From sequence record MK295203: DNA of 64,000 nucleotides, one strand, 5' to 3'. Positions 3,495 through 63,252 of this stretch are shown here, in pieces (the stretch's first letter is position 1; every line of letters begins with the position of its first letter). Both the position numbers and the translations under genes were made by a program. The stretch comes from Escherichia phage vB_EcoM_005. The notes under the pieces were generated by a model. The model had not been told where the DNA came from. It searched no databases and worked only from the letters and a program-made list of their open reading frames with translations.

Positions 3495-3719
3495 ATGAAA
3501 ACTTATCAAGAATTTATTACCGAAGCTAAAAGACATGAAGATGAACTGCCAATTGTTACAAAAACCTTTGATGGCACACTGGCTGATTTTAAAAAAGTCC
3601 CTAGTGATAAGCTTGCTAAATTGACTGGCTCTATCAATGAAAAAGGTGGCAAGGTCACGTTTTCTGCTGGCGGCATAGCCAATCTTAAAAAACTTTTGAA
3701 AGCCGCTGGCGCTGAATAA
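3495..3719 (+). CDS. internal protein (IP)-like with capsid targeting sequence
   Basis: N-terminus MKTYQEFITEA matches the T4 IPI/IPII/IPIII capsid-targeting signal cleaved by the prohead protease; small basic protein. Confidence 0.7.
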   Translation: MKTYQEFITEAKRHEDELPIVTKTFDGTLADFKKVPSDKLAKLTGSINEKGGKVTFSAGGIANLKKLLKAAGAE

Positions 3720-3720
3720 A

Positions 3721-3993
3721 ATGAAATCATACCAAGAATTTATCACTGAATCTATTCTTAATGAAGAAGTAAAAATTAACAAATCTGTTAAGACCGTGAT
3801 TGATAATATAAATCATCTCTATAACATTGATTTGACTAATCACGTGACTTTAGGCAATAAGCGAAACTTTTTTGTTTTTGATACTTCAGAACTTGACCAG
3901 AATCAAATTAACAATATTGAACGTTTTGCTAATGAAAAAGGACTGCGTCACGAAACGGCTGGTTATAAAAAGTATGCAATTTATCTAAAATAA
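3721..3993 (+). CDS. internal protein (IP)-like with variant capsid targeting sequence
   Basis: N-terminus MKSYQEFITES; immediately follows previous IP-like gene. Confidence 0.6.
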   Translation: MKSYQEFITESILNEEVKINKSVKTVIDNINHLYNIDLTNHVTLGNKRNFFVFDTSELDQNQINNIERFANEKGLRHETAGYKKYAIYLK

Positions 3994-4629: not shown

Positions 4630-4914
4630 ATGCTATACGTTAAGGTTACTAATCCAGAGAATGGCTATAACTCCGATCAGGTTGCAGCTGAGTTGTTGAT
4701 TCGCAATTATGGCAAAGATGCTGTTCTTGATGTTCAACAGGTTAATATAGGACGTAGTTCAAGCGATGTTAAGCTCAAAGTTAACAGCCATCGTTATAAT
4801 TCTGTTAACTTTACTTTTTATACCGCAACTGAAAACGGATTGGTCGAATACGACATCTTTAAAAATCCTTTGAAGATTGCTTCTATTAAACTTGATTACA
4901 TTAATATGCTTTAA
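4630..4914 (+). CDS. hypothetical protein
   Basis: 94-aa ORF, start overlaps previous stop (TAAATG). Confidence 0.5.
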   Translation: MLYVKVTNPENGYNSDQVAAELLIRNYGKDAVLDVQQVNIGRSSSDVKLKVNSHRYNSVNFTFYTATENGLVEYDIFKNPLKIASIKLDYINML

Positions 4915-5043
4915 GAATTATGTGATATTATTACTCTATCATTAATACCCTCTATTACCAAAGGTTCTTCCCTCAAAGAACCTTTCATAATAGACAAGGT
5001 CTATTAATCAAACTTACTTTACTTAATTTTATTTGAGGTGTTT

Positions 5044-5310
5044 ATGTTAGTATTAAAATTAGCTTTTTATGACCCAGAAACCAAGACAACAACTACCAAA
5101 CGTTGTTCTATTTCATATGACTGCCAATTTGGCGAAGTTGAGACTGACGGCGAGCCCTTTATGGCAATTGCCGATAGCACATTCGCTAAACCAAAAATAA
5201 TTCCACTAGTTAACGCTGCGGCTTATCTGGTTGCTCCTGAAGAAATGACTTATCATACAATTCAGCACATGGCTAAAGACGATAATGCTCCTGCTGGATT
5301 TGTAATTTAA
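5044..5310 (+). CDS. hypothetical protein
   Basis: ORF after gaggtg SD; ends 5 nt before first tRNA. Confidence 0.45.
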   Translation: MLVLKLAFYDPETKTTTTKRCSISYDCQFGEVETDGEPFMAIADSTFAKPKIIPLVNAAAYLVAPEEMTYHTIQHMAKDDNAPAGFVI

Positions 5311-5315
5311 ATTAA

Positions 5316-5389
5316 GGCCCTGTAGCTCAATGGTTAGCAGCAGTCCCCTCATAAGGGAAAGGTTACCGGTTCAAATCCGGTCTGGGTCA
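5316..5389 (+). tRNA. tRNA with CAU anticodon (Met or lysidine-modified Ile)
   Basis: ggccctgtagctcaatggtt...ccggttcaaatccgg: acceptor stem, D-loop AATGG, T-loop TTCAAATCC, anticodon loop cuCAUaa; no encoded CCA. Confidence 0.7.
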
Positions 5390-5397
5390 TTAACTAC

Positions 5398-5472
5398 GTC
5401 CCGCTGGTGTAATGGATAGCATACGATCCTTCTAAGTTTGCGGTCCTGGTTCGATCCCAGGGCGGGATACCA
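5398..5472 (+). tRNA. tRNA-Arg (UCU)
   Basis: gtcccgctggtgtaatggatagc...ggttcgatcccagggcgggatacca: acceptor stem pairs, T-loop GGTTCGATCC, anticodon loop cuUCUaa, encoded CCA. Confidence 0.75.
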
Positions 5473-5707
5473 AATGAAGACTATTATATAGTCAAGCCGT
5501 CGTATGAAGGACTGATTACCAGCATTCACCGGCGCAACAAACAAGAAACCGGGTCGCTACCGGTAAGTCGTCGGACTGAAGTTCCCTGAATAAGGACTGG
5601 CATTAACAAATCTTTACGATCTGTTAACGTCCCCTTATCTCACAGCTGAAACGGCGCACCGAACACTTGCCTAGCAGGTGGAACCCCGACAAGGTTACCC
5701 TAGGTTA
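5473..5707 (+). ncRNA. candidate small stable RNA(s) downstream of the tRNA genes
   Basis: 235 nt, GC-richer than surroundings, no ORF over 30 codons, ends at a strong terminator; T4 encodes stable RNAs C and D at the equivalent position. Confidence 0.3.
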
Positions 5708-5708
5708 A

Positions 5709-5737
5709 AGGCCCTTCCGAAAGGTTGGGCCTTTTTT
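5709..5737 (+). terminator. rho-independent terminator
   Basis: aggcccttccgaaaggttgggcc + TTTTTT; identical 30-nt copy at 6853-6882. Confidence 0.75.
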
Positions 5738-5774
5738 GTATAAATAGATAAGTTAATTAACACAGGAAACAATA

Positions 5775-6248
5775 ATGAAAACTTACAATGAATTTTTGAA
5801 CGAAAGCGTTCTGACTGAAGCCTCCGCTTCAGATGTTCGCGCTGCAGCAACTGCTGCTATTAAAGCCGGTAAATATTCTTATAAAGATGCTTCTGATGAA
5901 TCTCGGTACAAGTTCTACGACGATATGAGAGCTGAAGGCTTTGTGGGTAACTATGTTACCACCGCCTGGAAAAGCATGGTTGCTTCTGGTGCAGCTTTCG
6001 AAAAAGCTTCTGGTAAACCCGCTCCTAAGGCCGACCCTAAAGCAGCACAAGAAAAAAATATTGCTAAAGGAATTATCTCTAAGTATGAAGCAATTCTTAA
6101 AGAGCTTTTAGTAATCAAAACAGAAGGCCAGAAACTGGCACGAGCACATAGCTTCAAAGATAATCCACATGCTCACGACTTAGAGTATGTTGAAGATATT
6201 CAGAAAATCATCAAAGACCGTATCTGGTCTGCTAAACAAATCAAATAA
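5775..6248 (+). CDS. internal protein (IP)-like with capsid targeting sequence
   Basis: N-terminus MKTYNEFLNESVLTEA; 157 aa, lysine/alanine rich. Confidence 0.6.
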   Translation: MKTYNEFLNESVLTEASASDVRAAATAAIKAGKYSYKDASDESRYKFYDDMRAEGFVGNYVTTAWKSMVASGAAFEKASGKPAPKADPKAAQEKNIAKGIISKYEAILKELLVIKTEGQKLARAHSFKDNPHAHDLEYVEDIQKIIKDRIWSAKQIK

Positions 6249-6292: not shown

Positions 6293-6847
6293 ATGAAACT
6301 TTTAAAATATTTGAGTTGGGTTCTGTTGGTTCCACTGGATTTCATCTCTATGGTTCTGGCCGTTATCCTTGCGCCTTTTGTAGTTCCTTTCCATAATAAA
6401 AAGACCGGTAAATTGCCTTATGGCTTTGATTGGATGATGACATACGATAATCCAATTGACGGTGACAAAGGTCATATTAAACGTTGGGCTAAAATCAGGA
6501 AAATGCCGGGCGGTGTTTATCTCCAGAGGGTAGCTTGGCTATGGCGAAATAAAGCTTATAACTTTGCTTACCATAAACTTGGACGCGATTGTAGCTCAGA
6601 ATTCCATTATCGTGGTAATCCTGACGTTGAATCTGGTTCTCCTGATAAAGCTCATCATGGGTGGCTATGGATGTGGAATGATGAAGCATGGGGAGTCTTT
6701 GCTTCGGTTCCTTATCTTAAGGTTGGAGGTATTACCTTTTATCTTCGCGTGTACTGTGGTTGGAAACTTAAGAGTCTTTTGTCTCGTAAAATCCCTAAGG
6801 CTATGTTAGCCTTCCACATAAACCCGTTCCGGTTCTACAAGAACTGA
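6293..6847 (+). CDS. membrane protein, hypothetical
   Basis: N-terminal TM helix (LSWVLLVPLDFISMVLAVILAPFVVPF), Trp-rich soluble part. Confidence 0.5.
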   Translation: MKLLKYLSWVLLVPLDFISMVLAVILAPFVVPFHNKKTGKLPYGFDWMMTYDNPIDGDKGHIKRWAKIRKMPGGVYLQRVAWLWRNKAYNFAYHKLGRDCSSEFHYRGNPDVESGSPDKAHHGWLWMWNDEAWGVFASVPYLKVGGITFYLRVYCGWKLKSLLSRKIPKAMLAFHINPFRFYKN

Positions 6848-6852
6848 TTCTA

Positions 6853-6880
6853 GGCCCTTCCGAAAGGTTGGGCCTTTTTT
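6853..6880 (+). terminator. rho-independent terminator (repeat of 5709-5737)
   Basis: ggcccttccgaaaggttgggcc + TTTTTT. Confidence 0.75.
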
Positions 6881-6903
6881 GTTTCTAAAAGTTTAAAAAA
6901 GAT

Positions 6904-6932
6904 GTTTACACCTCCTTTAAACATGATACTAT
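6904..6932 (+). promoter_or_regulatory. T4-type early promoter
   Basis: GTTTACacctcctttaaacatgaTACTATagacctatcaa. Confidence 0.7.
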
Positions 6933-63064: not shown

Positions 63065-63252
63065 TGGACTTATTTGATATGTTTGTCATTCCGGACCCTG
63101 AGCCTGAAACAACTCAGGAGCCGCCTGTTGACCTTGTCAACGAACTTGATATTATTATACAGAAGCATGGTTTTAAGTTGCCTAAAGATGCTCTTAGCGA
63201 CCTAGCTTCTTATTACTTAGACCCTCCACCCTGGGCCCCTTGGGTAAAATAA
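63064..63252 (+). CDS. hypothetical acidic protein
   Basis: 62 aa. Confidence 0.4.
   Translation: MDLFDMFVIPDPEPETTQEPPVDLVNELDIIIQKHGFKLPKDALSDLASYYLDPPPWAPWVK

Follow-up and report, generated by a model that had tools for sequence, protein, structure and literature searches.

The question raised by this locus is what occupies the 265 nt (5473-5737) that lie downstream of tRNA-Arg, the second of two tRNA genes, in Escherichia phage vB_EcoM_005 and that run to the end of a terminator. At the equivalent position T4 encodes two small stable RNAs, RNA C and RNA D, which have been recognised for about fifty years, and a preliminary description of the segment had drawn the analogy with this pair. 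No function was assigned to T4 RNA C or RNA D in a review of 2010 (PMC3014915); an RNA-seq study of T4 from 2022, which includes a northern blot for RNAC, lists RNAC and RNAD as stable RNAs that accumulate late and have no known function (PMC9697503); and in an evolution study of 2025, in which a T4-like phage adapted to a semi-permissive host, every line is reported to carry a single convergent SNP in rnaD (PMC12685909). An assigned function for either RNA was not found in the literature. Our analysis of the window, that is, the whole 64,000-nt stretch of DNA examined, leads us to conclude that the segment very probably forms the 3' portion of a tRNA transcription unit of the T4 type, carried by a Dhakavirus, and consists of a spacer, an rnaD orthologue, a trailer and a terminator, with rnaC deleted. 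The features of the region are as follows.

5316-5389, + strand: tRNA-Met (CAU), found by ARAGORN; Rfam tRNA, 55.6 bits.
5398-5472, + strand: tRNA-Arg (UCU), the T4-type allele, found by ARAGORN; Rfam, 48.8 bits; the whole tRNA is identical to T4 tRNA-Arg (alignment A1).
5473-5538, + strand: spacer of 66 nt that separates tRNA-Arg from RNA D; two hairpins are predicted in it.
About 5541-5660, + strand: orthologue of rnaD (T4 species 2 stable RNA), 83.9% identical to T4 rnaD; 151.8 bits with our covariance model R1.
5661-5706, + strand: 3' trailer, with hairpins T1 (5664-5670/5674-5680) and T2 (5682-5685/5693-5696), then a variable third hairpin.
5707-5737, + strand: intrinsic terminator of the tRNA/RNA D unit, copy 1 of a 31-nt repeat; predicted fold with a U6 tail.

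The non-coding character first ascribed to the segment was borne out, the longest + strand ORF in 5473-5737 being 21 aa long and the - strand ORFs (22-57 aa) overlapping the tRNA or the terminator. The segment is also GC-richer than its flanks, as had been noted (0.50-0.505 over 5400-5699 vs 0.28-0.43 upstream and 0.38-0.40 downstream, in 200-nt windows), and a GC-rich hairpin followed by U6 closes it, in keeping with the strong terminator described there. The region is 95.7% identical to Escherichia phage QL01 (genus Dhakavirus, Tevenvirinae); the first 25 kb of the window are ~92% identical to JS10, and the gene order (57A, 57B, Ip genes, trna.4/.3/.2, tRNAs, then the e.8 side) matches that of T4. 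Within the segment the order is likewise that of T4, namely tRNA-Arg, rnaD, trailer, terminator and the e.8 side; the split into four parts was drawn from an alignment with T4, QL01, Kha5h and ATK47. The preliminary description had named fold prediction and a covariance-model search as checks. The predicted fold of a 268-nt segment is better than that of all 200 dinucleotide-shuffled sequences (z = -3.6). Rfam returned nothing in the segment beyond the tRNAs, with only the two tRNAs passing the gathering threshold and a best sub-threshold match of 12.4 bits (E 7.7) at E <= 10; our own model R1 recognises rnaD.

By blastn, window positions 5544-5660 match T4 rnaD (NC_000866, 71053-71171) at 83.9% identity over 118 nt (E 5e-29), and the ends of the RNA at 5541 and 5660 are transferred from the T4 annotation. 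The suggested analogy thus stands for the position and for RNA D; it fails for RNA C, as set out below. Model R1 finds one rnaD copy in the window; a further weak match at 63178-63217 (- strand) lies antisense inside an ORF and was dismissed as chance. Homologues of rnaD are present in 733 phage records. Their annotation is uneven: Kha5h and ATK47 carry rnaC only and the RB-series records rnaD, and in many GenBank T4-like genomes rnaD is either missed or covered by 'hypothetical protein' CDSs (e.g. VR7ORF148c), a point that bears on the annotation of these phages.

The T4 layout (NC_000866) is tRNA-Arg, 1 nt, rnaD (119 nt), 6 nt and rnaC (139 nt). When T4 rnaC was compared with the 64-kb window no match was obtained (best E 0.98), so that homology to this gene, its T-arm-like GGGUUCGAAUCCC included, was not found in the window. 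Alignment with T4, QL01, Kha5h and ATK47 leaves a clean 146-nt gap at the rnaC site (GCGCACCGAA|CACTTGCC). Most of 691 matching records have the extra 146 nt, and the contiguous, rnaC-less junction recurs in VR5, MX01, ESCO10, JS98, IME281, IME341 and dhabil. Judged from these alignments, rnaC is removed in this phage by a clean 146-nt deletion, and because the gene is absent, 5473-5737 is not RNA C plus RNA D but spacer, RNA D and trailer. Natural genomes with RNA D and without RNA C offer a handle for tests of RNA D. T4 rnaC itself gives in Rfam only a weak match to tRNA-Sec (17.5 bits).

The slot downstream of rnaD has other occupants in related phages. Providencia phage PSTCR6 carries a genuine tRNA-Ile gene (726-797) where T4 has rnaC, which suggests that the positions after rnaD are exchangeable tRNA-sized cassettes. 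In Klebsiella phage Roth76 a non-coding stretch of ~120 nt (1490-1612) separates an RNA D-like element from tRNA-Asp; an 18-bp closing stem (GUUCGCUUUCAGGGAUAC / GUAUCUCUGAAAGCGAAU) was recognised by eye, and the stretch may be a counterpart of rnaC. In the Roth76 record a CDS for a 37-aa 'hypothetical protein' (1413-1526) covers the RNA D-like element and extends into this next stretch.

A consensus structure for RNA D was obtained by running RNAalifold on 22 distinct rnaD sequences. It consists of four helices, given here in window coordinates.

5548-5552/5560-5564, + strand: P1, a 5-bp hairpin with the invariant loop GUCGCUA.
5567-5573/5652-5659, + strand: P2, a long-range helix GUCGUCG/CGGCG-AC that includes a U5571-G5654 wobble.
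5580-5583/5644-5647, + strand: P3, 4 bp, with an A-U to U-A swap in 7 sequences.
5587-5642, + strand: P4, a long hairpin with a variable apical part.

In this model P2 clamps the 3' end of RNA D. The preliminary description had held that a lack of conserved secondary structure in homologous regions would count against the segment; in these homologues the rnaD fold is backed by covariation. In the 22-sequence alignment 97.7% of the cells pair, vs 29-48% with the partners slid, and none of 500 shuffles reaches the observed pairing or covariation; as the rnaD sequences are closely related, such shuffle controls overstate significance and the figures are not probabilities. With Karamvirus and Jiaodavirus added, the pairing fraction is 97.9% over 26 sequences (alignment A4, which was fitted to the model and hence favours the structure), and 11 of the 22 pairs change on both sides. 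Across the alignments tested the number of pairs changed on both sides was 5-11, and the covariation spans six genera. Conservation of sequence is superimposed on that of structure: the P2 core CGUCG/CGGCG, with its U-G wobble, is invariant in all 26 sequences, and a run of ~45 nt in rnaD, which takes in unpaired junctions, hardly varies across three genera. For the apical part of P4 at least three versions occur that are unrelated in sequence, all with a predicted hairpin fold (type A in the window and T4; type B in dhabil and JS98; type C in VEc20, ES12 and IME341). When four distinct versions were compared with shuffled sequences three were the more stable (z -2.9 to -4.6), and type C was not (z -1.3). 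Since type C occurs in both Tequatrovirus and Dhakavirus, the sequences point to an exchange of P4 versions by recombination between conserved flanks.

Model R1 extends the family to Karamvirus (CC31, PG7 and Pet-CM3-4; 35-37 bits) and Jiaodavirus (Roth76 and PKO111; 22 bits), in which rnaD-like RNAs directly follow tRNA-Asn; independent minimum free energy folds of the Roth76 and PG7 RNAs have the layout of the RNA D consensus. A match in Aeromonas phage L9-6 was rejected as part of a tRNA-Lys gene, and the seven IMG/VR sequences that fitted a degenerate pattern (L024-L030) were not significant with R1, the best, L030, scoring 13.1 bits. An early reading of the P2/P3 internal loop as a K-turn was dropped, because, as judged by eye, the tandem G-A is not kept in the Karamvirus and Jiaodavirus homologues. 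RNA D, which has no Rfam family, thereby gains a fold backed by covariation, and the reach of the family to Karamvirus and Jiaodavirus, together with a fixed core bearing an exchangeable apical hairpin, provides handles for the design of mutants and probes.

The spacer between tRNA-Arg and rnaD is restricted to 25 near-identical Dhakavirus records (97-99% identity); it is lacking in T4 and dhabil, in which rnaD abuts a tRNA. Its minimum free energy is -15.4 kcal/mol (z = -2.0). Because these 66 nt separate rnaD from tRNA-Arg, 5' processing of the RNA may differ from that in T4. As to its source, one could speculate that the spacer is a collapsed second copy of RNA D, in which case the window would carry a tandem of a mini-RNA D and RNA D. 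In a lenient-gap local alignment with rnaD the spacer scores 34.6, against 20.0 +/- 3.5 for shuffles, with 1 in 1000 shuffles doing better; its predicted fold combines a 5' hairpin with a closing helix of the RNA D sequence type, and it has in common with RNA D the leader AAUGAAGA, a P1-like hairpin, AAG, a GUCG/CGGC helix with a U-G wobble, and GGACUGA. Against this, when the window was searched at E <= 10 with a core covariance model of P1 and P2 (R2, built on 15 members of the family), the spacer was not among the matches, and it has no homologues outside the 25 near-identical records. We regard such an origin as doubtful.

Downstream of rnaD, the trailer is the most conserved in its first part. 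Positions 5662-5696 (35 nt) are almost invariant in 13 distinct sequences from Tequatrovirus, Mosigvirus and Dhakavirus, the exceptions being single-base substitutions, two in number, and a loop indel of 1 nt; the sequence reads ACACUUGCC(U)UAGCAGGUGGAACCCCGACAAGGUU, with GGAACCCCGACAAGG in the middle of the 35 nt. The trailer is kept with or without an rnaC upstream, accompanies T4-type rnaD in every case and is lacking at the loci of Karamvirus and Jiaodavirus. Its conservation exceeds what the hairpins alone would need, so the trailer may give rise to a separate, 3'-spacer-derived RNA. In the third trailer hairpin and in the stem of the terminator the variation is compensatory, the latter reading GGCCC/GGGCC here vs GCCCC/GGGGC in T4-type phages, a compensatory swap. 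The predicted fold of the terminator is AAAGGCCC-UU-CC-GAAA-GG-UU-GGGCCUUU followed by U6, that is, an 8-bp GC-rich stem, a 2x2 internal loop and a GAAA-capped tip, and it has the sequence and fold expected of an intrinsic terminator; a simple terminator scan missed it because of the 2x2 internal loop in the stem.

Upstream of the tRNA genes the start of the unit can be proposed from two further elements.

4904-4931, + strand: candidate MotA-dependent middle promoter, with a MotA box ATATGCTTTA (4904-4913) and a -10 element TATTAT (4926-4931), 12 bp apart.
4951-4994, + strand: leader hairpin with 19-bp arms and a 6-nt loop (inverted repeat I2, 89% complementary).

The former fits the MotA-box middle-promoter consensus established for T4. 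Ahead of the tRNA cluster, the block TGCTTTAAGA.T.AT.TG.TATTATTA does not vary between the window, T4, Kha5h, QL01 and dhabil. The leader hairpin is kept in T4 and Kha5h with changes on both arms and is also conserved with QL01 and dhabil. An 88-aa ORF (phrog_14864, 5044-5310) is inserted between the leader hairpin and tRNA-Met; T4 and dhabil have no gene there, and their first tRNA directly follows the hairpin. We infer from the sequence a transcription unit of ~800 nt, from ~4938 to 5737, which would lead from the MotA-type middle promoter through the leader hairpin, the 88-aa ORF, tRNA-Met and tRNA-Arg to the terminator at 5707-5737. By extension from T4, the primary transcript would be cut by host RNase P, RNase E and 3' exonucleases, releasing both tRNAs together with an RNA of ~120 nt, which P2 would clamp at its 3' end and which would accumulate owing to its compact fold.

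The terminator has a second copy further downstream. A recurrence over 30 nt had been reported; the repeat proved slightly longer, 31 nt, with 5709-5739 and 6852-6882 being 100% identical. There is no third copy in the 64 kb within 3 mismatches, and no copy of the repeat arises in 100 shuffles. The two copies do bracket an internal protein (IP)-like gene and a membrane protein gene, as first described, within the following arrangement.

5739-5746, + strand: TATAAATA, the T4 late-promoter consensus, directly after copy 1 and 29 nt upstream of the IP-like ORF.
5775-6248, + strand: IP-like ORF of 157 aa (phrog_2280), with an N-terminal capsid-targeting-like motif MKTYNEFLNE.
6293-6847, + strand: second cargo gene, a DUF7338 protein of 184 aa (phrog_2143 in PHROGs; Pfam PF24027, 4.4e-63).
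6852-6882, + strand: copy 2 of the terminator repeat, 4 nt past the DUF7338 stop codon.
6905-6932, + strand: early-type promoter-like site TTTACA-16-TACTAT, downstream of copy 2.

The late-promoter consensus TATAAATA also follows the terminator in Kha5h, dhabil and QL01, and is not found there in T4, which has no cargo; its count over the entire window is not above chance. The motif at the start of the IP-like protein matches the homologues of Ip8 and Ip9 at 3495 and 3721 (MKTYQEFITE and MKSYQEFITE) and resembles the start of T4 IPI (MKTFKEFTST). Three ORFs of the window (5775-6248 and two in 3495-3993) share MK(T/S)Y(Q/N)EF(I/L)(T/N)E, typical of the capsid-targeting sequences of T4 internal proteins. 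The IP-like ORF is followed by a different terminator and then by the DUF7338 gene; the neighbouring proteins belong, in Pfam and PHROGs, to families of unknown function only. The terminator pair brackets just one ORF of 154-157 aa in four other phage sequences (L008, L010, L012 and L016), and with T4, which has one terminator and no cargo, the cargo across phages amounts to 0, 1 or 2 genes. Because the same pair brackets varying cargo and T4 is without it, we propose that the repeat forms the borders of an insertable late-gene cassette, the duplicated terminator marking both ends of an insert that would comprise the late promoter, the IP-like gene and the DUF7338 gene. Recombination at the terminator repeat would be in line with these sequences. 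Repeat-bracketed cargo of this kind is seen in many T-even phages and is typical of hyperplastic regions; the ATK47 record carries a note on a 43-bp repeat.

What RNA D does has to be argued from its conservation. T4 mutants that lack the entire tRNA region grow on laboratory hosts, so any function of RNA D would be conditional. The mechanism that we prefer, while holding it only tentatively, is that RNA D acts in trans as a structured, protein-binding RNA, serving a host or phage protein as ligand or decoy, rather than as an antisense RNA. The preference for a protein ligand is based on the invariant 5' domain and junctions, the sequence-fixed helix with its U-G wobble and the swappable apical hairpin; a recognised protein-binding motif was not found in RNA D. 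Base pairing is another way in which such an RNA could act: RNA D, or the trailer with its terminator, could be a regulatory RNA, the trailer resembling a 3'-external-transcribed-spacer RNA that sponges host or phage RNAs. A near-invariant trailer followed by a terminator hairpin with a U-tail is the usual build of Hfq-type RNAs, and the trailer is retained irrespective of rnaC. However, rnaD shows neither similarity nor extended complementarity to any of 5,426 E. coli genomes, and at the 96 translation-initiation regions of the 64-kb window the duplex energies of rnaD and its domains, the trailer and the spacer are no better than those of shuffled queries. For want of an E. coli match and of unusual complementarity to start regions in the window, antisense action is disfavoured, and we consider a base-pairing role quite unlikely. 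We give similarly little weight to a composite of the two, in which RNA D would be the core of a host-interaction module, its 5' domain and P2 binding a host factor (e.g. a tRNA-directed defence or processing enzyme) and P4 tuning the specificity, and the trailer with its terminator would form a separate regulatory RNA; were it true, the rnaC-less phages would demonstrate that neither RNA D nor the trailer needs RNA C in order to work.

An action in cis deserves more consideration than these two, and is still rather unlikely in our view. RNA D would then be a compactly folded processing and stability module that directs endonuclease cleavage for the 3' terminus of the preceding tRNA and stops 3' exonucleases; the stable RNA itself would be a by-product. 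It always lies inside tRNA clusters, and in T4, dhabil, PSTCR6, Karamvirus and Jiaodavirus it starts 1-5 nt past the tRNA CCA, after an A-rich linker. This linkage is broken by an ORF of 114-116 aa between tRNA-Arg and rnaD in Kha5h, RB68 and ATK47, and by the 66-nt spacer here; moreover, ~45 nearly invariant nucleotides including junctions exceed the need of a blocking hairpin, and a convergent adaptive SNP has been reported in rnaD (PMC12685909), both of which count against a module acting in cis. That the segment yields no RNA product at all, and is simply untranslated intergenic sequence whose structure arose by chance, would agree with the failure of any Rfam family to match it, but T4 rnaD, too, has neither an Rfam match nor a family. 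Clear orthology to a T4 RNA that has been detected experimentally (PMC9697503) and covariation across six genera leave this reading hardly credible.

Several known systems resemble parts of this locus. Mobile regulatory cassettes of the PeSL type, and Ip genes flanked by repeats, have reportedly been described in T4-type phages by Repoila et al. in 1994 and Arbiol et al. in 2010. The likeness lies in the identical terminator stem-loop at both ends of a variable cargo and in the early-promoter-like site after copy 2; the difference is that copy 1 is here followed by a late promoter (TATAAATA), whereas PeSL cassettes have an early promoter after each stem-loop. In E. coli the 3'ETS-leuZ, the 3' spacer of a tRNA operon, reportedly acts as an sRNA sponge (Lalaouna et al., 2015). 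The trailer of the present unit, likewise a conserved stretch that in a tRNA operon joins the final stable RNA to the terminator, resembles it by analogy only. With T4 rnaC (species 1 stable RNA, which has a tRNA-like 3' domain) the comparison is confined to its surroundings, the gene itself being absent from the window and its downstream trailer present. The closest counterpart is T4 rnaD, whose product is also called band D. This phage differs from T4 in having a 66-nt spacer to tRNA-Arg instead of 1 nt, a 3' flank CACCGAA instead of CACCAAA, and the trailer directly after rnaD, with rnaC missing. The two genes are nevertheless orthologous, lie on the same strand at the end of the tRNA cluster after tRNA-Arg (UCU), have the same predicted P1-P4 fold and share the downstream trailer and terminator; the element described here is an already known one, the orthologue of a T4 stable RNA, and not a new kind of element.
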